Assembly: GCA_963624325.1 (NCBI GenBank)
Contig: CAVFPH010000019.1
Span: 3,757-27,082, forward strand
Length of the DNA stretch: 23,326 nucleotides
Reading direction: 5' to 3'
From: a bacterium
Lineage (GTDB): Bacteria > Bacillota > Clostridia > Christensenellales > Aristaeellaceae
Below are positions 1,219-19,643 of the stretch, piece after piece. Made by a program: the position numbers and the translations under genes. A model generated the notes under the pieces. It ran no database searches, was not told where the DNA came from, and saw nothing but the letters and a program-made list of their open reading frames with translations. Position 1 is the stretch's first letter; the number at the start of each line of letters is the position of its first letter.

Positions 1219-1247
1219 TGGACGGACAGCTGAATTGCTGATATAAT
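1219..1247 (+). promoter_or_regulatory. Sigma-A-type promoter with extended -10 for the STAS/PP2C-kinase operon
   Basis: TGaTATAAT (TG 1239-1240, TATAAT 1242-1247). A weak -35 TGGACG (1219-1224, 4/6) sits at 17-nt spacing, just downstream of the DegV terminator. Confidence 0.5.
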
Positions 1248-1306
1248 AGCCAAGTAGGGCAGCTGCTTTTTGCTGCCATCGCATGCGCAAAGCGGGAGAA
1301 GAAGCT

Positions 1307-1606
1307 ATGAGCTTAAACATTGAACAGCACATTTCGGAAAATGCCGTGATCATCCTATCGGGACGGCTGGATACATCCACGGCCCCTCAGCTGGAGGAGG
1401 CAATTGACCGGGCACTGCCGCAGATAGAATCCCTGACGCTGGACCTTGCCGATACGGAATATGTTTCCTCGGCAGGGCTTCGCGTTATTCTGAAGGCATA
1501 CAAGGCCCTTGTGCACAAGGGTGGACTAAAACTTAAGCATGTTCGGGAGAATGTGCGGGAAGTGCTTGATATTACCGGATTTTCGGATTTTCTTGTGATC
1601 GAATAG
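1307..1606 (+). CDS. STAS-domain protein (anti-sigma-factor antagonist family, SpoIIAA/RsbV-like)
   Basis: 99 aa from ATG 1307, with SD GGGAG 1294-1298 at 8-nt spacing. The ORF-track start 1283 has no SD. Motif DLADTEYVSSAGLRVILKAYK aligns with SpoIIAA DLSFMDSSGLGVILGRYK. The Ser aligned to the phosphosite is Ser55. Confidence 0.9.
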   Translation: MSLNIEQHISENAVIILSGRLDTSTAPQLEEAIDRALPQIESLTLDLADTEYVSSAGLRVILKAYKALVHKGGLKLKHVRENVREVLDITGFSDFLVIE

Positions 1607-1637
1607 TGCCTATCTGCCGATGATTGGGGAAAATCAG

Positions 1638-3776
1638 ATGAAAATACTTCAGATGGGAATTGCCACGATGCTTCCGGTGCTTGTCTCCGGATTGCTGATG
1701 CTGCTGACAAAAAAAGTCGCGCGGTTCAGGCAGAACATCGGCAAAAGAAATATGCTGGTGGGCGTGGCATTCGGCATGCTGGCAATTCTGGCCACGGAGT
1801 TCGGAGTTCCTGCCGGCGGCGGCGCGGTGATGAACGTGCGGGATGCCGCCCCGTTGTGCGCAGGGCTTTTCTTCGGCTGCCCCGCCGGCCTTGTTTCCGG
1901 CTTCATCGGCGGCCTGCATCGCTGGCTGTGCATGCATCAGGCAAACGAAATTACCCGCATGGCCTGCGCACTGTCCACTTTTCTTGCGGGAATTTTCAGC
2001 GATATGATGCGGCGGCAGATGTTTGAAAACCGCAATCCCGGGGTGCTTTCCTGCATCGGCATCGGTTCAACCATGGAAGTGCTGCATATGCTGCTGCTTC
2101 TGGCAACAAACCTTGCAAAAGTTTCCCATGCCTTTTCCTTTGTCCAGGCCAGCGCACTGCCCATGTGCATATGCAGCGGCATTTCCGTTGGATTGTCTTC
2201 CTTGATTTGCAGTCTTCCCATTACGCCGGACCGGCTTGAATTTAAATCCAAGAAAATCAGCCATGTCTTTGGCTTTTGGCTGCTGGTATGCGTTATTGTC
2301 GCTTTTTTGACAACCAGTGCTTTTACGCAGCAGGTTGTGTATCGTATCACAACCAACGATGCGGAGCTGTACCGCAAGGTGACGATCTATCTGGTTGCCT
2401 TTATCGAAATCCTGATTTATACGGCGCTTTTTATTCTGATTTATCAAATGCTGAAAAAAAAGATTGTCCGCAACCTGCAAAAGGTGAATGAAGGACTCAA
2501 CGCCATTACAAACGGAAACCTGAATACGGTGATTGATGTACGGGACTTTCGGGAATTTTCCGAGCTTTCGGACGATGTAAACGCCACGGTATCCTCCCTG
2601 AAGCACTATATCAAAGAGGCCGAGGAGCGCATCGACCAGGAGCTTGAAATCGCCAGGCAGATTCAGCATTCCGCCCTTCCATCTGTCTTTCCGCCCTATC
2701 CCGACAGGCAGGAGTTTGAACTGTTTGCGTCCATGAATTCGGCCAAGGAGGTCGGCGGGGATTTTTACGATTTCTATTTTGCGGGCGAAGATCAGCTGGC
2801 CTTTATGATTGCCGATGTATCCGGCAAGGGCATTCCAGCTGCCATGTTCATGATGACGGCAAAGACAACCATCAAGGATCTGGCAGAAAGCGGGCTTCCC
2901 ATCGACGAGGTGATGAACCGCACCAATGAGCGGCTGTGCGCCGGCAACGAGGCAGGCATGTTCGTAACTGCCTGGATGGGTATCCTGAATTTGAAAACAG
3001 GCCTTGTGCGCTTTGTCAATGCCGGGCATAATCCCCCCCTTGTGTGCTGCGGGGACAGCGATTATACGTATTTCAAAACCCGCCCCAATCTGGTGCTTGC
3101 CGGCATGGAGGGGGTTCGTTACCGCGCGGGCGAACTGCAGCTTTCTCCGGGTGATACGATTGTTTTGTACACTGACGGCGTAACCGAGGCCACCAACAGC
3201 AAGGGCAAGCTCTACGGCGAAGAGCGGCTGAACCGTGTGCTCAACACGTACAAAATCCTGCCCATTGAAGAATTATGTGAGCGTATTCGCGCCGATGTGG
3301 ATATTTTTGTGGATGATGCGCCGCAATTTGATGATATTACCCTGCTTGCACTGAAATATAAAGGTGGCGGCATGAAAAAGATGACACTTGAAGCAGCTGT
3401 TGACAACCTTGAACGCGTGACGGCGTTTGTGGATGATTTGCTGGAGGCGCATGGCTGCACGCCTCGCGCCCGCACGCAGATTGACGTGGCCATTGACGAA
3501 ATTTTCTGCAATATTGCCAGCTACGCCTATGCGCCGGGGAAAGGAAGCGTGACCGTGGCGGCCGATGTGCAAAACGGCGCCGCTGTAATTGAGTTTACGG
3601 ATGAAGGCATGCCCTTTAACCCCTTGGCGGCGGACGATCCCGATTTGACGCTGGATGCCGAGGAGCGCGAGGTCGGCGGTCTGGGCATCTATCTGGTAAA
3701 GAAAACGATGGATGATCTGCAGTATACCCGTGAAAACGGGAAAAACATCCTGAAAATCACCAAGCGCATCCAATGA
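1638..3776 (+). CDS. Membrane sensor fused to PP2C (SpoIIE/RsbU-type) phosphatase and RsbW/SpoIIAB-type serine kinase (HATPase_c_2): 5TMR-LYT-like TM domain - HAMP - PP2C - HATPase
   Basis: Single ORF. Alternative in-frame starts are 1620, 1638 and 1653; 1638 is preferred because of GGGGAA 7 nt upstream. The N-terminal ~280 aa are polytopic, with MNVRDAAPLCAGLFFGCPAGLVSGFIGGLHRW resembling LytS/YhcK 5TM receptors. HAMP-like segment: NLQKVNEGLNAITNGNLNTVIDVRDFREFSELSDDVNATVSSL. PP2C motifs: EVGGDFYDF, IADVSGKGIPAAMFM, YTDGVTEA, FDDITLLAL. C-terminal 135 aa carry the N-box DEIFCNIASYA, G1-like FTDEGMPFNP and G2 GGLGIYLV. Confidence 0.9.
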   Translation: MKILQMGIATMLPVLVSGLLMLLTKKVARFRQNIGKRNMLVGVAFGMLAILATEFGVPAGGGAVMNVRDAAPLCAGLFFGCPAGLVSGFIGGLHRWLCMHQANEITRMACALSTFLAGIFSDMMRRQMFENRNPGVLSCIGIGSTMEVLHMLLLLATNLAKVSHAFSFVQASALPMCICSGISVGLSSLICSLPITPDRLEFKSKKISHVFGFWLLVCVIVAFLTTSAFTQQVVYRITTNDAELYRKVTIYLVAFIEILIYTALFILIYQMLKKKIVRNLQKVNEGLNAITNGNLNTVIDVRDFREFSELSDDVNATVSSLKHYIKEAEERIDQELEIARQIQHSALPSVFPPYPDRQEFELFASMNSAKEVGGDFYDFYFAGEDQLAFMIADVSGKGIPAAMFMMTAKTTIKDLAESGLPIDEVMNRTNERLCAGNEAGMFVTAWMGILNLKTGLVRFVNAGHNPPLVCCGDSDYTYFKTRPNLVLAGMEGVRYRAGELQLSPGDTIVLYTDGVTEATNSKGKLYGEERLNRVLNTYKILPIEELCERIRADVDIFVDDAPQFDDITLLALKYKGGGMKKMTLEAAVDNLERVTAFVDDLLEAHGCTPRARTQIDVAIDEIFCNIASYAYAPGKGSVTVAADVQNGAAVIEFTDEGMPFNPLAADDPDLTLDAEEREVGGLGIYLVKKTMDDLQYTRENGKNILKITKRIQ

Positions 3777-3801
3777 ATTAGCAAAGGGAGAGGACAGAAC
3801 C

Positions 3802-4974
3802 ATGCTGAATGCAAGAAGCGAAAATGAAGTGCTGACAATTGCTCTTAGCGGGCATATTGATTCCACCAACGCACCTGAAATGGAAAAAGAGGCCGCCGAG
3901 CTTCGGCAGCAGTACCCGCACAAGGCGCTGGTTCTGGATATGGAGAACCTGGAATACATTTCCAGTGCCGGGCTGCGCGTGATCCTGCGCCTCCGCAAGC
4001 AGGAGGATAACCTGAGCCTGATCAACGTAAGCTCCTCGGTTTATGAGGTGCTGGATATGACGGGCTTTGCCGAGATGATGCCGGTGCAAAAGGCCTTTCG
4101 CCGCCTGAGCGTGGAGGGCTGCGAGGTAATCGGCCGCGGCGCCAACGGCAAGGTTTACCGCTTGGATCGGGATACCATCATCAAGGTCTACTATAACCCC
4201 GACAGCCTGCCCGACATTCGCCGGGAGCGTGAGCTGGCGCGCAAGGCGCTGGTGCTGGGCATCCCCACGGCCATTCCCTTTGACGTGGTTCGGGTGGGGG
4301 ACAGCTACGGCTCGGTGTTTGAGCTGCTCAACGCCAAGTCCTTTTCCAAGCTTCTTATTGCCGATCCCGACCATATGGATGACTATGTGTCCCAGTATGT
4401 TGACCTGCTGAAAACCATCCACAGCACGCACGTAAAGCCGGGCGAAATGCCGCGGATGAAGGATGTCGCCGTCGGCTGGGGCAATTTCCTGCGGGATTAT
4501 TTGCCTGAGGAACAGGCAGAACGCCTGTGCGCCCTGATTGCCGCTGTACCCGATCGGGATACCATGCTGCACGGGGATTATCACACCAACAACCTGATGA
4601 TGCAGGATGGCGAGGCCCTGCTGATTGATATGGATACCGTATGTGTCGGCCACCCGATTTTTGAACTGGCCAGCATGTATCTGGGCTTTGTGGGCTTTGG
4701 CGAGCTGGATCATGAGGTGACAAAAAAGTTCATGGGGCTGGATTATTCCCTCACCTGCGAATTCTGGCGCCGCAGCCTGCGCCGTTATCTGGGCGATGCC
4801 GATGAGAATAGCGTGCGCGCCGTTGAGCGCAAGGCCATGCTGATCGGCTATGCCCGCCTGATGCGCCGCACCATCCGCCGGGAGGCCGATACCGAAAGCG
4901 GCCGGGCCGTGATTGCATCCTGCAAAAAGCACATCGGGGAGCTGCTGCCCACAATCGACACGCTGGATTTTTAA
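3802..4974 (+). CDS. STAS domain fused to an aminoglycoside-phosphotransferase/choline-kinase/CotS-like (eukaryotic-like kinase fold) domain
   Basis: SD AGGGAGAGG lies 8 nt upstream. aa 1-~97 form a STAS domain (DMENLEYISSAGLRVILRLRK; Ser55 at nt 3964-3966). aa ~100-390 carry the Gly-loop IGRGANGKVY, the Lys in IIKVY, the catalytic loop LHGDYHTNNL (HxDxxxxN Brenner motif) and the metal-binding LIDMDT. Confidence 0.85.
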   Translation: MLNARSENEVLTIALSGHIDSTNAPEMEKEAAELRQQYPHKALVLDMENLEYISSAGLRVILRLRKQEDNLSLINVSSSVYEVLDMTGFAEMMPVQKAFRRLSVEGCEVIGRGANGKVYRLDRDTIIKVYYNPDSLPDIRRERELARKALVLGIPTAIPFDVVRVGDSYGSVFELLNAKSFSKLLIADPDHMDDYVSQYVDLLKTIHSTHVKPGEMPRMKDVAVGWGNFLRDYLPEEQAERLCALIAAVPDRDTMLHGDYHTNNLMMQDGEALLIDMDTVCVGHPIFELASMYLGFVGFGELDHEVTKKFMGLDYSLTCEFWRRSLRRYLGDADENSVRAVERKAMLIGYARLMRRTIRREADTESGRAVIASCKKHIGELLPTIDTLDF

Positions 4975-5021
4975 GCCGAAAAAAATTTTTCCTGCCGAAT
5001 TGTAAAAATCAAAATTTGCAC

Positions 5022-5050
5022 TTGCTTTTTTAGCGAATATCTGTTATGCT
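5022..5050 (+). promoter_or_regulatory. Candidate sigma-A promoter for the Cys-rich protein gene leader
   Basis: TTGCTT (5022-5027), a 17-nt spacer, then TATGCT (5045-5050), inside an AT-rich intergenic region. Confidence 0.4.
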
Positions 5051-5116
5051 CAATACGCGTACATGAACGAGATGTAACCAAGTGCAGTTAAACGTGAACA
5101 ATGAGGCAAGACAAAG

Positions 5117-5218
5117 ATGAAAACAATTCTTGATTTTCGGCATTCGATCCTTCAGGAGAAGGGCCTGCCCTTTTACCATACCGTCAAGCCGGTTGTGCCG
5201 CCGCGTGCGGGCTTTTAG
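5117..5218 (+). CDS. Candidate 33-codon leader uORF (MKTILDFRHSILQEKGLPFYHTVKPVVPPRAGF)
   Basis: ATG 5117 follows GAGG (5103-5106, 10-nt spacing). The stop TAG (5216-5218) falls in the loop of the downstream hairpin. It is too short for coding statistics, so this is speculative. Confidence 0.2.
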   Translation: MKTILDFRHSILQEKGLPFYHTVKPVVPPRAGF

Positions 5219-5244
5219 CCTGCGCCCGGCGGTTTTGCTTATTT
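5198..5244 (+). terminator. Intrinsic terminator-like hairpin in the leader of the Cys-rich gene (an attenuator, or the distal terminator of the upstream operon)
   Basis: CCGCCGCGTGCGGGC (5198-5212) / loop TTTTA / GCCTGCGCCCGGCGG (5218-5232): 14 of 15 positions pair (two G-U). It is followed by TTTTGCTTATTT. Confidence 0.6.
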
Positions 5245-5284
5245 CAGTTTCAAATACAGTTTTTTACAGCGAAAGGAGAAAGAA

Positions 5285-7939
5285 ATGAAAAAAACGCTGG
5301 CCATGCTGCTGACCCTGTGCCTGCTGGCATCCTGCCTGCCCATTGTTCACGCTGAGGATTGCCCCAAAGGCGGCGTCCACGACGTGACACAGGATATCGG
5401 CACCTACACCATCACCACCACCGATCCTACCTGCCAGAAAAAGGGCATGCGCATCTATACCTGCACCGAGTGCGGAGAGGTATTCTGGGAGGAAGGCTAC
5501 TTAGATCCGCTGGATCACAACTATCGGGAAACCGAACGCAAGAATCCTACCTGCACGGAAAACGGCTATGTTACCTATGCCTGTTCCAAGTGCCTTGACA
5601 GCTATACCGACATCCTTCAAGCCGAAGGGCATAATCAGAGCGGCCCTCTCTTCTTTCAGAAAGCTACTTGTACTCAACCGGAGACGGAATACGTGCAATG
5701 CACCAAGTGCCTGCAGCTGCAGGAGAACGGCACAACCGGAGAGGCCCTCGGCCATGACTATCGGCAAACGAACGTGGTTCCCTCCACCTGCGCGGTGGCA
5801 GGCTATATCACCTATACCTGCAACCGCTGCCCGGCTACCTATAATGATCCCTTGCCGCTGGCTGACCACAATTATGAGGTGAAGACTGCTCCCGCCACCT
5901 GCACCGAGGGCGAGCGGTGCTATGACGAGTGCAGCGAATGCGGCGATACAACAACGGGTGAATATGTCAGCGATCCCCTCGGCCATGATTATCATGTGCA
6001 GGAATTCAAGCACGTGGAACCCACCTGCGAGGAGCGCGGCAGCGATACCCACAAGTGCGCCCGCTGCGGTGAGGGCTACATGACCGCCCTGGGTGCCCTG
6101 GGCCATGATTGGACGACCACCGACGGCTATACCTACACCTGTACCCGCTGCGGCAAGGTCGAGGTGGATGAGGAGGCCAAGGCCGAGGCCGAGGCTACGC
6201 CGATCCCCAGCGCATACGGCAGTGCCAACGAAAAGGATGAGCTGACCGACCTGACGCTTACCAGCGCCATCAAGGAAGTGGGCGGCGGCTACTCCCTGCG
6301 CCGCGAGGAAGCCACGCTGAACAGCATCTCGCTGGCAGCCGAGCGCGACCCCGAAAATTCCTGGATGCGCCTGACCGCGGCGGATCCTGCCAGCCAGCTG
6401 GGCATGGTTTCCGGCTTTATCGGGGACGATATGACCATGACGCTGACCGAGAATGATAAGGAACTCAAAATCACGGGCGTCAGTATGAAGGATTCCGTGC
6501 TGACCATCACCACATCCTCCGGCGCTGTATTCGAGCTGAGCACGCCGGGCGTATCGCTGGGCTATACCGAGCTGGACAGCATTTCCGAGAAAAACCTGGA
6601 CCGCATCATATTCAAACGTTCGGGCGGCGTGCTGATGATCGATTTCGGCTCCGCTGAGGCGATGAAGGCGGAGGTTGCGGCCGCGCTTGCCACCCCCGCG
6701 CCCACATACCATGTTGAGATTAAATTCTCCAAGGCGAACATTACGACCCCCACTCCCACGCCCGCGCCCATATACGTGGTTAACATCACATTCAGCAAGG
6801 CGAACATTACAAGAGAGGAGCCGTCCGCTACCCCCGAACCGACGGTCGCAATCGTGCCGGAAGAAGAGTGCAGGATTGTTATCATCGCATACGACGACGA
6901 GGAGGATGTCGCGAAATACGAGCGCTCCATCTGCCCGCATCAGTGGGAGTATGCCGAAGAGAACACTTGCCAGGCATCCAGAACATGCAAGCTCTGCGGA
7001 AAGCAGGAGGATACCCCGTCGGAGCACTGCTGGTACGCATGGAATAAGGTTGTAGACGGCAAGCAGTATGATATGAACGTAACATCGATCACTGATGCAA
7101 ACGGTTTTGTCATCACTGACTATGTGGTGTCTACATACATTTTGAAATGCCGCTACTGCGATGCCACGATGGAGGAAACCTCGCTCAATCAGGTGGCGGG
7201 CAAGTGTACGCATCCCCGGCTGAAAGAGAAAACAACAGCATACGTAAATGACGGCGATGATGTAAGAAAATATTGGTGTACCAACGCGATGCAGTGTCCG
7301 GATTGCCATTCACAAGTCAAGGCTGTCGGTCACAACTGGAAAATTACCGGCGAGAGCGGCGATTATTACACGGCCGTTTGCCAGCGCTGCGGAAAAACCA
7401 TCAACGCAAACAAGAAATACTACAACAGCGCAAAAGGCAAGCTGGACACAAGTGAAATGTCCTGCGCGGATGACCCCAACAACCATCGCTGGGTGACTGT
7501 CGAGTCCAACGGCTGCAAACAGACGCTTGTGTGCAGCAACTGCGGCAAGCAGACAACAACGGACCACGACTGGGAGGTTACCAAACAGCTGTGCAACTAT
7601 ACAGCCGTATGCCGGAAGTGCGGGAAAACGGAAAAGGTAACCATCCACCCCGAAATCGATGTAGAGTCAATCAACCGGGGAGAAACAGTAAAAAAATGGT
7701 GGATCGACCAGCATTACGAATATAATGTATATGTGACATATGCATATTGTACAAGCTGCGGACTGACATTAGCCAGCGAAAAAGCTGAAGAATACAAAAT
7801 TAGCTTTAATGAATATAAAAACAGTGATTACGAGACGAAAAAGATAGAGAAGCTGAAGAGGAAATTCGGTGTCGATAAATTCCCTGCCACCTATACATTG
7901 CCCGTTTATCTAACGGACGGCTACATTAACTCCAAATAA
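5285..7939 (+). CDS. Large secreted or lipoprotein Cys-rich repeat protein (884 aa), family unassigned
   Basis: SD GGAG lies 6 nt upstream. Signal peptide MKKTLAMLLTLCLLASCLPIVHA has a lipobox-like LASC (Cys17) and an alternative AxA-type site VHA/ED. About 45 Cys in the mature protein fall in regular CxxC-containing modules. There is no LPXTG, SLH or C-terminal TM segment. Confidence 0.85.
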   Translation: MKKTLAMLLTLCLLASCLPIVHAEDCPKGGVHDVTQDIGTYTITTTDPTCQKKGMRIYTCTECGEVFWEEGYLDPLDHNYRETERKNPTCTENGYVTYACSKCLDSYTDILQAEGHNQSGPLFFQKATCTQPETEYVQCTKCLQLQENGTTGEALGHDYRQTNVVPSTCAVAGYITYTCNRCPATYNDPLPLADHNYEVKTAPATCTEGERCYDECSECGDTTTGEYVSDPLGHDYHVQEFKHVEPTCEERGSDTHKCARCGEGYMTALGALGHDWTTTDGYTYTCTRCGKVEVDEEAKAEAEATPIPSAYGSANEKDELTDLTLTSAIKEVGGGYSLRREEATLNSISLAAERDPENSWMRLTAADPASQLGMVSGFIGDDMTMTLTENDKELKITGVSMKDSVLTITTSSGAVFELSTPGVSLGYTELDSISEKNLDRIIFKRSGGVLMIDFGSAEAMKAEVAAALATPAPTYHVEIKFSKANITTPTPTPAPIYVVNITFSKANITREEPSATPEPTVAIVPEEECRIVIIAYDDEEDVAKYERSICPHQWEYAEENTCQASRTCKLCGKQEDTPSEHCWYAWNKVVDGKQYDMNVTSITDANGFVITDYVVSTYILKCRYCDATMEETSLNQVAGKCTHPRLKEKTTAYVNDGDDVRKYWCTNAMQCPDCHSQVKAVGHNWKITGESGDYYTAVCQRCGKTINANKKYYNSAKGKLDTSEMSCADDPNNHRWVTVESNGCKQTLVCSNCGKQTTTDHDWEVTKQLCNYTAVCRKCGKTEKVTIHPEIDVESINRGETVKKWWIDQHYEYNVYVTYAYCTSCGLTLASEKAEEYKISFNEYKNSDYETKKIEKLKRKFGVDKFPATYTLPVYLTDGYINSK
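5360..6154 (+). repeat. Protein-level tandem array: 6 full + 1 partial ~40-aa modules, [GD]-H-[DN]-[YW]...P-[ST]-C-x9-C-x2-C
   Basis: Cys triplets at aa (50,60,63), (90,100,103), (129,139,142), (169,179,182), (206,216,219), (248,258,261) and the partial (286,289). Each is followed 13 or 15 aa later by the His of DHNY/GHNQ/GHDY/DHNY/GHDY/GHDW. The DNA copies have diverged, with no long exact nucleotide repeats. Confidence 0.7.
6704..6835 (+). repeat. Two tandem 22-aa units (TYHVEIKFSKANITTPTPTPAP / IYVVNITFSKANITREEPSATP) in a Pro/Thr-rich linker
   Basis: The exact 14-nt AAGGCGAACATTAC occurs at 6731-6744 and again at 6797-6810 (66-nt period). Both copies encode FSKANIT. Confidence 0.6.
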
Positions 7940-9603: not shown

Positions 9604-9819
9604 ATGTCTGTAAACAAGCCCGGCATCGTGGAACTGAGCAAAAAGGTAGACTGCCGCTATACCCTGGTGGTGGAAACGTCCAAGCGTGCGCGCCAGCTGG
9701 TTGCGGGCGCACAGCCCTTGATCGATCCCAAGGATATGAAGCCCGTCGGCATCGCCATTGAGGAGATCAACCGCGGACTGCTGACCTATCGCCGCAACCT
9801 GGAAGACGAGGAGCAGTAA
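9604..9819 (+). CDS. rpoZ: DNA-directed RNA polymerase subunit omega
   Basis: 71 aa, with CRYTLVVETSKRARQL typical of omega. It sits between gmk and coaBC as in Bacillus. SD GGAGG. Confidence 0.85.
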   Translation: MSVNKPGIVELSKKVDCRYTLVVETSKRARQLVAGAQPLIDPKDMKPVGIAIEEINRGLLTYRRNLEDEEQ

Positions 9820-17280: not shown

Positions 17281-17979
17281 GTGAAAGCGTATATGAAAAC
17301 CCATCGCGGCCTTGTGCGTGAGCAGAATGAGGATACCGTCTGTGTATCCGATCCGCTTTATGTGCTTGCCGACGGTATGGGCGGACATCAGGCCGGGGAG
17401 GTCGCAAGCGCGCTTGCGGCACACACCCTTTGCGAAACGCTGTGCAACGTGCAGCCTTCTTCCGATGCGCTGATCCGAGGATATCAAACTGCCAACAGCA
17501 CTGTTTTTGGCCGCCAGAAAGAGGACAAAGCGCTTTCGGGCATGGGCACGACCATGACGGCCTTGTGGGAGGATCGGGAGTATGTTTTTGTCGGGCAGAT
17601 CGGCGACAGCCGTGCCTACCTGTTTCGGGACGGAAAACTGCATCAGATTACCGAGGATCAGTCCATGGTGGCCGAAATGGTGCGTGCAGGCGCGATTACA
17701 AAGGAACAGGCACGAAATCATCCGTACCGCAATGTGATCATGCAGGCAGTGGGAACGGAAACACGGCTGAATCCAGTCGTTACCCGCATTCTGAAAACCC
17801 CGGGGGATTGCTGGCTGCTGTGCTCCGACGGGCTTACCGACATGGCTAAGGATGAAGAAATCGCGGCGGTGCTTGCCGAATATCCGCCGCAGGAGGCTGC
17901 GGAAGAACTGATCCGCCTTGCCCTTGCGCATGGCGGAACGGACAACGTGAGCGTCCTGCTGCTGGAGGTGGAGGCATGA
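17281..17979 (+). CDS. stp: PP2C-family Ser/Thr phosphatase Stp/PrpC
   Basis: GLVREQNEDT, LADGMGGHQAGEVAS, LCSDGLTDM, GGTDNVSVLL. The GTG start is 9 nt after GGGAGG (ATG 17293 is an alternative). ATGA overlap with prkC. Confidence 0.9.
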   Translation: MKAYMKTHRGLVREQNEDTVCVSDPLYVLADGMGGHQAGEVASALAAHTLCETLCNVQPSSDALIRGYQTANSTVFGRQKEDKALSGMGTTMTALWEDREYVFVGQIGDSRAYLFRDGKLHQITEDQSMVAEMVRAGAITKEQARNHPYRNVIMQAVGTETRLNPVVTRILKTPGDCWLLCSDGLTDMAKDEEIAAVLAEYPPQEAAEELIRLALAHGGTDNVSVLLLEVEA

Positions 17980-19643
17980 TCGGACGCGTGTTTGCCCAGC
18001 GCTATCGGCTGGAGGAGTTTATCGGCAAGGGCGGCATGGCACTTGTCTTCCGTGCGACGGATTTGCGCACGGGTCATGATGTGGCGGTTAAAATACTGCG
18101 TCCGGAATTCAACAACGATAAGGAATTTCTGGAGCGTTTTCAGCGCGAGGCGCTTGCCGCCAGCAAGATGAGCCACCACAACATTGTAAATTTGCTGGAT
18201 GTCGGTCAGGAAGAAAACTATCGGTATCTGGTCATGGATTATATGCGGGGTCGGACACTGAAAGAAGTGATCACCGAAAAAGGCCATTTGCCCGAGCAAG
18301 TGGCGGCGCAGATCACCATACGCATCCTTTCGGCCTTGCAGCATGCGCACAATAACGGTATTATTCACCGCGACATAAAGCCGCAAAACATTCTGGTAAA
18401 CGCCGAAGGCATGATCAAGGTTGCCGATTTCGGCATCGCGCGCATTGCCGGCAGCAGTACGCTGTCCAAGGGGGACAGCGTGATGGGCTCGGTGCACTAC
18501 TTTTCGCCCGAGCAGGCACGCGGTGAGAATGTCACCTATGCCAGTGATTTGTACAGCGTTGGGGTCGTCCTTTATGAAATGCTGACCGGACAGGTGCCCT
18601 TTGACGGCGATACGCCCGTCAGCGTGGCAATGCAGCACATTTCTTCCCAGCCGAAGCCGCCTTCTCAGCTGGTGGACGGCATATCGCCTGCCATGGAACA
18701 GGTGGTGCTTACCGCCATGAGCAAGGATCCGCGCAGCCGTTATCGAGATGCGGCAGACATGGCCCGCGCCATTCATGCGGCATTGGAACATCCCGATGCG
18801 GCAGTGGGCGCGGTATCCCAGAAAACGGCCGCTCAGCACCTGCCCGGCTCGGATACGGGACGGACTGCCGCTGCGGCAAGACAGCGGAAAAAGCAGCGCT
18901 TCCGGGAAAAACTGCTGATATTGGGGCTGACTTTGGTTGCGCTGGCTGTCCTCTCGGTGGGCACGGTGGAGATTGTGCGCAGCATTGTAAACACGGTTGA
19001 AGCACCCTATCTGATTGGCGAAACCGAGGAAAACGCCAAAAAGATGGGCGAGGATCGCGGCCTTCGCGTAGAGGTCACCCGTCAAAGCGACAGCAAAACA
19101 CCGGCGGGAATCGTCATCATGCAGTCCCGCGAATACCAGTACCGCATGAAGCGCGGCGATGTAATATTGATTACCGTCAGCACCGGCCCCGAAAAACAGG
19201 GGGCTCCAGCATTGACGGGCATGCTGCTGTCCCAGGCACAAACGGAGGCAGAAAAGTACGGCTTCAAAGTACTGGCAAGCAGTTATCGGGAATCGGATCA
19301 GCCATTTAACACGGTGCTGGAGCAAACCCCGGCCGAAGGAGAAATGCTGGCATACGGCGAAATCATTCAGGTGGTTGTCAGCGGAAGCGTGACGATGCCC
19401 TCCTTGACCGATTTAACCAGTACGCAGGCAATCCAGCAGCTGCAAAGTGTCAGCATGAACAATATCCAGATTGTGGAAACACCTTCGTCCGATCCATCCC
19501 GCGTGGGGCGGGTGGCGGATCAGCTGCCCAAGGCGGGCGAGCGGGTTTTGTATGATGCCGTTGTGACATTGGCGGTATACGTTCAGGCGGCAGCTGATGC
19601 CGATCAACCTGCCGATACTGCCGCGCCGTCGGGCTCAGATTAA
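17976..19643 (+). CDS. prkC: Hanks-type Ser/Thr kinase PrkC/PknB with one TM segment and three extracellular PASTA-like repeats
   Basis: GKGGMALVF, VAVKIL, HRDIKPQNIL, DFGIAR and SPEQA. TM segment LLILGLTLVALAVLSVGTV. Three ~65-aa repeats follow, starting at APYLIGETEENA, APALTGMLLSQA and MPSLTDLTSTQA. Confidence 0.93.
   Translation: MIGRVFAQRYRLEEFIGKGGMALVFRATDLRTGHDVAVKILRPEFNNDKEFLERFQREALAASKMSHHNIVNLLDVGQEENYRYLVMDYMRGRTLKEVITEKGHLPEQVAAQITIRILSALQHAHNNGIIHRDIKPQNILVNAEGMIKVADFGIARIAGSSTLSKGDSVMGSVHYFSPEQARGENVTYASDLYSVGVVLYEMLTGQVPFDGDTPVSVAMQHISSQPKPPSQLVDGISPAMEQVVLTAMSKDPRSRYRDAADMARAIHAALEHPDAAVGAVSQKTAAQHLPGSDTGRTAAAARQRKKQRFREKLLILGLTLVALAVLSVGTVEIVRSIVNTVEAPYLIGETEENAKKMGEDRGLRVEVTRQSDSKTPAGIVIMQSREYQYRMKRGDVILITVSTGPEKQGAPALTGMLLSQAQTEAEKYGFKVLASSYRESDQPFNTVLEQTPAEGEMLAYGEIIQVVVSGSVTMPSLTDLTSTQAIQQLQSVSMNNIQIVETPSSDPSRVGRVADQLPKAGERVLYDAVVTLAVYVQAAADADQPADTAAPSGSD

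Follow-up and report, generated by a model that had tools for sequence, protein, structure and literature searches.

A putative partner-switching operon with a STAS-fused APH-like kinase as its candidate output in gut Clostridia

Partner-switching modules are among the commonest signalling units in bacteria, and copies that lack a sigma factor usually have no known output, with SypA as the classic example. What such a switch controls is the question raised by three adjacent genes, referred to here as g1, g2 and g3, in a 23.3-kb stretch of a gut Clostridia metagenome-assembled genome (contig CAVFPH010000019.1), the whole of which is called the window below. As predicted from their sequences, g1 encodes a single STAS protein, g2 a membrane sensor fused to a PP2C phosphatase and an RsbW-type kinase, and g3 a STAS domain fused to a kinase of the aminoglycoside phosphotransferase (APH) fold, an architecture named STAS-APH in the following. 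A candidate output is written into the last gene itself, as an enzyme with a STAS handle of its own. The first-pass annotation, made from the letters of the DNA, had proposed the APH-like kinase as the output of the switch, and this proposal is supported by comparative genomics: profile searches back the STAS, 5TMR-LYT, SpoIIE, HATPase_c_2 and APH assignments (E 1e-14 to 1e-52), the three architectures recur as neighbours, and sigma factors do not consistently accompany them. Fusions and neighbourhoods in hundreds of species, among them relatives of Faecalibacterium, Roseburia and Coprococcus, point to the same partners. It is therefore considered somewhat probable that g1–g3 form a partner-switch-type serine phospho-switch whose client is the APH-fold kinase of g3 and not a sigma factor.

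Architecture of g1, g2 and g3

The three genes are co-directional and separated by gaps of 31 and 25 nt, a layout that had been noted earlier and is confirmed here with starts supported by ribosome-binding sites (RBS), a good Shine-Dalgarno sequence lying ahead of each gene.

1307–1606, plus strand: g1, single-domain STAS protein of 99 aa (Pfam STAS, TIGR00377); RBS GGGAGA ahead of the ATG at 1307.
1638–3776, plus strand: g2, fusion of membrane sensor, phosphatase and kinase, 712 aa (Pfam domains); RBS GGGGA ahead of 1638, and the public gene call has the same start.
3802–4974, plus strand: g3, STAS domain fused to an APH-fold kinase, 390 aa (Pfam STAS and APH, TIGR02172); RBS GGGAGAGG ahead of the start.

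The g1 protein matches Pfam STAS at 9.5e-15 and TIGR00377 at 1.2e-18 and carries the motif YVSSAGLRVIL, in which the putative phospho-serine Ser55 is encoded by codon 1469–1471, so that its description as a STAS protein of about 100 aa with the canonical serine context is borne out. For g2 and g3, the domains recognized are as follows, the residue ranges of g2 (Pfam) being numbered from an alternative in-frame ATG at 1620, which lacks an RBS and would give a protein of 718 aa and a gap of 13 nt.

1743–2207, plus strand: g2 5TM-5TMR_LYT transmembrane sensor (PF07694, aa 42–196, 2.4e-20).
2457–2603, plus strand: g2 HAMP-like linker, tentative (aa 280–328, E 7.6e-4, 20.2 bits against a Pfam gathering score of 25).
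2787–3359, plus strand: g2 PP2C/SpoIIE serine phosphatase (PF07228, aa 390–580, 6.5e-52).
3390–3764, plus strand: g2 RsbW/SpoIIAB-type GHKL serine kinase (PF13581, HATPase_c_2, aa 591–715, 5.2e-24).
3808–4092, plus strand: g3 STAS domain (aa 3–97, Pfam STAS 1.9e-14, with a TIGR00377 match), motif YISSAGLR, Ser55 at codon 3964–3966.
4123–4971, plus strand: g3 APH/ELK-fold kinase with helical C-lobe (Pfam APH, PF01636, aa 108–294, 1.2e-17, above cut-off).

The 5TMR-LYT domain of g2 contains an N-x-R-D motif, with N72, R74, D75 and P78 invariant in homologues, and is followed by two further hydrophobic segments that were read from the translation. The HAMP-like stretch is weakly matched by NCBIfam models of histidine kinases and methyl-accepting chemotaxis proteins, and the Pfam scan gave no Response_reg match in g2, whose input consists of the 5TMR-LYT domain and the HAMP-like linker. 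In the phosphatase, the acidic PP2C motifs GGDFYD, ADVSGKG, YTDG and DD are invariant among 11 homologues (49–64% identity), as are D381, D384, D399, D519, D571 and D572, and the domain aligns to the PP2C domains of Rv1364c, the SiaA-like 6K4E and RssB. The kinase domain is matched by RsbW models at 4.6e-8, and its N, G1 and G2 positions E627, N631, D661, G663, G686, G687 and G689 are at least 90% conserved in the same homologues. The best solved relative of g2 is Rv1364c (PDB 3KE6), to which both the PP2C and the kinase domain are matched (residues 371–655, E 9.4e-15). The sensor–HAMP–PP2C–RsbW kinase order assigned to g2 in the first-pass annotation is thus supported for the 5TMR-LYT, SpoIIE and HATPase_c_2 domains, with motifs intact, whereas the HAMP assignment is weak and stays below the gathering score.

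The junction between the PP2C and HATPase domains of g2 (window 3360–3395, residues ~581–592) reads KYKGGG-MKKMTLEA and resembles the start of a formerly separate gene. Loci compared in this work are cited by L numbers and individual proteins by P numbers; in L007, the nearest relative with separate genes, where the g3 protein is 78% identical, LYT-PP2C (3517–5292) and HATPase (5345–5752) are two genes. The PP2C-HATPase fusion of g2 looks recent in the lineage of the window, and similar fusions arose in many others.

The STAS domain of g3 is 41% identical to g1 (E 5e-20) and has its serine at the same position 55, in agreement with the earlier view that the two are paralogous. Ser55 of g3 aligns to a SpoIIAA position occupied by Ser in PDB 1TH8 and by Ala in 1TID, a variant entry; the residue there is taken to be the phosphorylated serine of SpoIIAA. 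In both g1 and g3 the serine thus stands where SpoIIAA has Ser58 and RsbV Ser56. In the kinase part, TIGR02172 is matched at 2.6e-31, with 109 bits against a cut-off of 228, and the profile search found no equivalog model for the APH domain. Ser55, K128, E174, H257, N264 and D276 are invariant in an alignment of 47 members (34–59% identity), in which G111, G113, E142 and D259 are at least 90% conserved. Judged by these positions, g3 is predicted to hold the full ATP-binding and catalytic residue set of the APH/ELK fold, and the kinase-fold domain with intact catalytic motifs described earlier is upheld. Because a sequence search of g3 against the PDB returned STAS proteins only, with nothing better than E 0.65 for the kinase domain, structure prediction and Foldseek were used. 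The AlphaFold2 model has a predicted local distance difference test (pLDDT) of 95.5 and a predicted template-modelling score (pTM) of 0.87, the latter suggesting that STAS and kinase are predicted as one compact unit. The top PDB matches of this model in Foldseek are all small-molecule kinases (E ~1e-10, identity 11–18%, TM-scores 0.5–0.63 relative to the target): APH(2'')-Ib (3UZR, 2e-10), APH(2'')-IIa, APH(4), methylthioribose kinase (2PUL), capreomycin and viomycin kinases, amicoumacin kinase and a choline kinase-like protein, the Foldseek probability being 1.00 against the APH(2'') and methylthioribose kinase structures. A small molecule is proposed as the most likely substrate of the g3 kinase. 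An assignment of g3 as an aminoglycoside resistance gene was rejected in view of the missing equivalog match, the 11–18% identity to APH enzymes and the chromosomal signalling context.

Neighbours and fusions of STAS-APH

To follow the distribution of STAS-APH, 1.84 billion cluster representatives (clusters at 50% identity) were searched exhaustively with HMMER, which gave 729 clusters at E ≤ 1e-30; nearly all are ~390 aa long and are matched throughout, starting at residue 5–10. A scan of one genome per species with a 12-sequence alignment found the protein in at least 585 species, and the carriers listed are mostly Oscillospiraceae, Lachnospiraceae, Erysipelotrichaceae and other gut or rumen Firmicutes. 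For the neighbourhood survey, open reading frames (ORFs) were called in 82 STAS-APH loci and searched with profiles for which the domains of the window served as seeds; the full-flank set comprises the 45 species loci that extend 5 kb or more to either side, and in it neighbours were counted within 6 kb on the same strand. A PP2C, HATPase_c_2 or single STAS gene lies within that distance of STAS-APH in 38 of the 45 full-flank loci, and all three stand beside it in 21 of them, which bears out the expectation that the three architectures are co-conserved as neighbours.

The placement of the HATPase_c_2 domain varies. It is fused to PP2C, as in the window, in 29 of the 82 loci, and 12 loci have it appended to STAS-APH at the C-terminal end; most of these 12 have a PP2C gene nearby, which then lacks the HATPase domain. 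In the remaining loci that have one, HATPase_c_2 is a separate gene, and N-terminal HATPase_c_2-STAS-APH fusions were also found. This shuffling of the HATPase domain among partners is as expected if PP2C, HATPase and STAS-APH form a single functional unit. On the evidence of the predicted proteins, natural fusions physically tie an RsbW-type kinase to the STAS-APH protein, and these fusions are the strongest link between the latter and the switch. Chance adjacency was rejected on the fusion and co-location statistics. Outside the module, no conserved genes were found: the largest flank family, an SDF transporter, occurs in 6 of ~80 loci, and no Pfam family is present in more than 4 of the 128 proteins adjoining the module.

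The two kinds of STAS domain can be compared across the same loci. All of the 49 orthologous single STAS proteins and all of the 82 fused STAS domains carry the motif Y-x-S-S-A-G-L-R with an invariant Ser55. Members of one class share a median identity of 54%, compared with 37% across the two classes, and single and fused STAS sequences without exception find their best BLAST hits among their own kind; by these sequence measures, single STAS and fused STAS are distinct, co-retained lineages. The identical serine motif in both suggests that the same kinase and phosphatase serve both, and their separate conservation suggests that their roles differ.

Two kinds of phosphohydrolase gene recur next to STAS-APH. 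An HD_4 protein of ~190 aa is encoded directly upstream in 46 of the 82 loci (for instance, L001:9384–9947, L026:9411–9983 and L093:4988–5569), and at 41 of these 46 junctions the two genes overlap or stand no more than 30 nt apart. Its best PDB matches are 7QOE (1e-22), 7QOC, Lmo0812 (4YF1) and MESH1, so that it is small-alarmone-hydrolase-like, and it contains LHDTVED, an HD...ED pattern that is presumably the hydrolase motif of RelA/SpoT homologues. In six loci without HD_4, a PHP protein is encoded directly downstream of STAS-APH or STAS-APH-HATPase; it is related to PDB 3E0F (2e-31), CV1693 (2YB1, 2e-17) and RNase AM (7UG9), and CV1693 was solved as a complex with the products AMP and phosphate.

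PHP phosphoesterase genes: L030:11181–12047, L051:11557–12477, L060:3861–5066, L072:7137–8006, L080:11406–12272 and L083:11938–12813.

Fused forms were also seen, namely HD_4-STAS-APH, HD-CE-STAS-APH, STAS-APH-PHP (P0128) and STAS-HD_4. From this pattern of genes, HD_4 and PHP seem to stand in for each other as partners of STAS-APH. No match to the defence-system models of PADLOC was obtained for g1, g2, g3, HD_4 or PHP, and a known anti-phage system was rejected on this basis.

Further architectures of the family include Na_H_Exchanger-STAS-APH (P0197, 809 aa) and HD-CE-STAS-APH (P0235, 668 aa), and a STAS-HD_4 protein (L025:9100–10008) adjoins STAS-APH. As far as can be read from these proteins, a variety of effectors bear the STAS handle. 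In addition, the loci L001:11488–16554, L009, L010, L012, L013, L015 and L035 add three genes to the unit of STAS-APH, STAS, PP2C and HATPase: a Formyl_trans_N formyltransferase-like gene, an LPG_synthase_C gene (MprF C-terminal-like) and a MatE transporter fused to HATPase_c_2. Their presence hints that this sub-class is tied to the modification or export of an envelope component.

Proposed mechanism, rival explanations and the rest of the window

In the proposed mechanism, the 5TMR-LYT/HAMP module of g2 would sense an envelope or membrane-associated signal and set the balance between the PP2C phosphatase and the RsbW-type kinase activities, both of which would act on Ser55 of g1 and on Ser55 of the g3 STAS domain, which share the motif Y-x-S-S-A-G-L-R as ancient paralogues. 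The phosphorylation state of the g3 STAS domain would gate the APH-like kinase fused to it; this gating could be direct, or g1 and g3 could compete for the HATPase domain in a STAS-versus-STAS partner switch. The gated kinase would then phosphorylate its substrate, most likely a small molecule. The phosphorylation of Ser55, the active state, the role of g1, the signal and the substrate are all inferred in this scheme. As a system, g1–g3 offer a directly testable case of STAS phosphorylation gating an enzyme.

Several observations weigh against the g3 kinase as the client of the switch in the window. Four of the 45 full-flank loci have neither a partner-switch gene nor HD_4 within 6 kb of STAS-APH, and three further loci have HD_4 alone. 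Most relatives couple HD_4 or PHP tightly to STAS-APH and the window has neither, so that it may be a reduced version with a differing physiology. The g2 architecture itself is very common in the reverse look-up: among 80 metagenome loci found with the g2 PP2C part, ~10 have STAS-APH, two have a sigma gene (L125 and L157) and most have STAS alone, with or without HATPase. One g2 relative, in L093, has STAS-APH and HD_4 as neighbours, and other close relatives (54–59% identity) are accompanied by a single STAS but not by STAS-APH (L090). In L091 and L092, a single STAS, a 945-aa g2 relative (P0347), a 70-aa ORF and an extracytoplasmic function (ECF) sigma gene are found, again without STAS-APH. 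Since STAS plus LYT-PP2C-HATPase also occurs without STAS-APH, and in one lineage ahead of an ECF sigma gene, the g1/g2-type pair is presumably a portable switch that has several outputs and can serve others than STAS-APH. STAS-APH is nearly always found with switch genes and the switch only sometimes with STAS-APH, as fits STAS-APH being one of several clients. The switch of the window may accordingly have a second client, encoded in trans, in the same genome.

The sigma-factor question was pursued in the window and beyond it. No sigma factor was found in the 23-kb window by Pfam scans of all long ORFs or by sigma-seeded phmmer and jackhmmer, as the first-pass annotation had stated, and the sole RNA-polymerase-related gene there is rpoZ (9604–9819). 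Similarly, jackhmmer and phmmer searches seeded with E. coli RpoS, FliA and RpoE against 6,975 six-frame ORFs from 86 loci gave nothing below E 0.1. Of the two strongest among the weak hits, Pfam identified the one in L034 as a real ECF sigma factor 7 kb upstream of STAS-APH and the one in L051 as a YlxM-like helix-turn-helix protein 4 kb away; re-seeding with real ECF sequences found no more sigma factors in the 82 STAS-APH loci. A sigma/anti-sigma pair consistently beside the module, which would have marked an ordinary sigma-regulating switch, is thus not seen, one ECF sigma gene at 7 kb being the whole yield of 82 loci. It is unlikely, for these reasons, that the g2 HATPase_c_2 domain is the anti-sigma factor of a conventional switch, with its sigma factor encoded elsewhere in the genome, g1 as antagonist and g3 as a passenger or secondary substrate. 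Such a switch would agree with the match of the g2 HATPase domain to RsbW and SpoIIAB models, with a sigma gene near each of three further PP2C loci, and with the P0347 lineage (L091:5670–9550 and L092:3416–7296), in which the 70-aa ORF, without a Pfam match, and the ECF sigma gene lie immediately 3' of the STAS and LYT-PP2C-HATPase pair. P0347 is 59% identical to g2 over two thirds of its length, and the pair appears to be wired to sigma in this lineage. However, the L091/L092 sigma is of the ECF type, a class that is not usually sequestered by RsbW or SpoIIAB; moreover, the HATPase domain is repeatedly fused to STAS-APH itself, which points to STAS-APH as its partner.

The free STAS protein could instead carry the output. 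If g1 acted on another target in the manner of SypA, and the STAS domain of g3 merely tethered the kinase or competed as a phosphate sink, no gating would take place; this is quite unlikely. Single STAS genes are kept in 47 of the 82 loci, even where HATPase is fused to STAS-APH, and pairs of STAS and PP2C-HATPase stand alone in many loci, so that a free STAS can suffice as an output. It has been reported for the SypA/SypE system that unphosphorylated SypA acts on an unknown target (PMC8256260). On the other hand, no single STAS is present within 6 kb in 17 of the 45 full-flank loci, Ser55 and its motif are invariant in the fused STAS throughout the family, which a mere tethering role hardly accounts for, and All4160 provides a precedent in which phosphorylation of a fused STAS domain negatively regulates enzyme function. 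It is very unlikely that the APH-like domain is a protein kinase similar to CotS or YihE, acting on the STAS serine or on another protein, so that the locus would be a cascade of two protein kinases. Weak partial matches of the catalytic loop to the CotS/CotI spore-coat kinases, a YihE-type Ser/Thr kinase and Bud32 would be accounted for in this way, as would the 7 of 45 full-flank loci without a HATPase-containing gene nearby, which need another kinase for Ser55. Nevertheless, a dedicated HATPase_c_2 kinase is already present in most loci, the top structural neighbours of g3 at E ~1e-10 are small-molecule kinases without exception, and the recurrent partners HD_4 and PHP, as nucleotide-type phosphohydrolases, suggest a small phosphorylated product.

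A gated small-molecule kinase in g3, the reading preferred here, raises the further matter of its product. The HD_4 and PHP hydrolase families act on phosphates attached to nucleotides, and the repeated coupling of the kinase to such phosphohydrolases suggests, as a speculation, an antagonistic pair working on one phosphorylated small molecule. A bolder proposal, regarded as rather unlikely in its full extent, is that STAS-APH is a regulated kinase that makes a new phosphorylated signalling metabolite, plausibly a nucleotide with a phosphate on the ribose 3' (or 2') position, and that HD_4 and PHP destroy this metabolite. The unit would then be a partner-switch-controlled system for synthesis and degradation of a second messenger or alarmone-like compound in abundant gut Firmicutes, and the window a synthesis-only version of it. 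If the product is indeed a signalling metabolite, envelope sensing would be linked to a new small-molecule signal. In any case, STAS-APH represents an uncharacterised kinase family in dominant gut commensals, where it is often paired with alarmone-hydrolase-like enzymes.

Expression of the operon may start from a site ahead of g1.

1219–1247, plus strand: promoter-like site, TGGACG, 17-nt spacer and TG-extended TATAAT; 10/12 matches, 60 nt upstream of the g1 start.

The extended −10 promoter described earlier is thus present as a site. Across the region, 3 promoter-like sites were found against 3.7 expected in shuffled sequence; since there is no excess, the well-placed candidate at 1219–1247 is only plausible as a promoter and its function is not proven. 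A GC-rich 6-bp hairpin, GGCAGC-tgcttttt-GCTGCC (window 1258–1277, plus strand), is found downstream of the −10 element and ahead of the g1 RBS, within the predicted 5' leader, and an Rfam scan of the whole window matched zero RNA families.

Besides g1–g3, the window holds mostly ordinary housekeeping genes (degV, yicC, gmk, rpoZ, coaBC, priA, def, fmt, rsmB, rlmN, rsgA, rpe and ksgA). It also encodes a Stp-type PP2C phosphatase and a PrkC-like Hanks kinase with PASTA domains (17281–19643, plus strand), inside the conserved rsmB-rlmN-rsgA housekeeping cluster; this pair is ordinary and unrelated to g1–g3, but might cause cross-talk when phosphorylation is assayed. An 884-aa Cys-rich secreted protein (5285–7939, plus strand), with a signal peptide, many repeated Cys-pair motifs each near a His (C-x2-C ... 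GHD/DHN-Y) and no Pfam match, is encoded 3' of g3. It occurs there only in contigs with an identical g3 protein (L005 and L006) and is not kept beside the module elsewhere; as flanks are not conserved outside the module, it was ruled out as a part of the unit.

Comparison with known systems

The families involved are those of the Bacillus switches RsbU/RsbV/RsbW-SigB and SpoIIE/SpoIIAA/SpoIIAB-SigF, with the same three protein families and the same position of the STAS serine; the window differs in having no co-encoded sigma factor, in the fusion of kinase and phosphatase, and in two STAS paralogues, one of which is fused to an enzyme. Rv1364c of M. tuberculosis (3KE6) has the same order of PP2C and then HATPase in a single chain as g2. 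It carries a PAS sensor and a C-terminal STAS domain of its own and is linked to the regulation of SigF, whereas the sensor of g2 is 5TMR-LYT/HAMP and its STAS partners are separate proteins. The 5TMR-LYT sensor is shared with LytS-type proteins, but the output domains of g2 differ from those of the LytS histidine kinases.

Non-sigma outputs of partner switches are known from BtrV and SiaC. In Pseudomonas aeruginosa SiaABCD, much as proposed for the window, a membrane- or HAMP-linked PP2C (SiaA) is combined with a kinase, whose small partner protein in turn controls an enzyme. Among NCBIfam models, that of SiaA gives the best match of g2 (3.3e-18), although with 65.6 bits against a cut-off of 700, and g2 is not a SiaA equivalog. 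SiaC controls the diguanylate cyclase SiaD by binding, and control of the enzyme by binding and not by fusion distinguishes that system from g1–g3. In Vibrio fischeri, SypE has been reported to act on the STAS protein SypA at the equivalent serine, Ser56, through a single chain that unites an RsbW-like kinase with a PP2C phosphatase, and the output is not known to be a sigma factor (PMC8256260). g2 likewise holds an RsbW-like kinase and PP2C in one chain, although the order of sensor, HAMP, phosphatase and kinase, the membrane location and the lack of a receiver domain set it apart from SypE. The latter is cytoplasmic and has the order kinase, receiver and phosphatase. Moreover, the target of SypA is unknown, and the Syp system has no STAS-fused enzyme.

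As for the kinase, g3 shares with APH, methylthioribose kinase and choline kinase (ELK fold) the Gly-rich loop, the Lys-Glu pair, H-G-D-x-x-x-x-N and I-D-x-D. It is distant from the solved members in identity (11–18%) and TM-score (0.5–0.63), and none of them carries STAS.

The closest precedent for a STAS-fused enzyme is All4160 of Anabaena PCC 7120, a STAS-glycosyltransferase whose STAS domain is phosphorylated by Alr3423, with negative regulation as the result, and which is activated through the SpoIIE-type HenR (bioRxiv 10.64898/2026.04.08.717354). With this study of April 2026, in which direct regulation of the enzyme is proposed, the principle of a directly gated STAS-fused enzyme has already been reported. 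In both systems an N-terminal STAS domain is fused to an enzyme and has a serine that is phosphorylatable in All4160 and conserved in g3, and no sigma factor is involved in Anabaena or encoded beside g3; the SpoIIE-type phosphatase and serine kinase that act on the STAS domain of All4160 have putative counterparts in g2. The enzyme of Anabaena is a glycosyltransferase with a predicted transmembrane segment, whereas g3 is a soluble APH-fold kinase; the Anabaena genes lie at scattered genomic positions, with a receiver domain driving HenR, whereas the window has kinase and phosphatase as one membrane sensor in the same operon, plus a co-conserved free STAS. A coupled phosphohydrolase in most STAS-APH species is a further difference. 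Within the literature library that was searched, nothing relevant was found on STAS-APH, on TIGR02172 or on STAS combined with aminoglycoside phosphotransferase or alarmone hydrolase. The earlier view of the wiring as uncharacterised consequently stands for STAS-APH and falls for the principle, which All4160 already exemplifies: a kinase as the proposed output of a STAS-gated switch is new, and the gating itself is no longer unprecedented.

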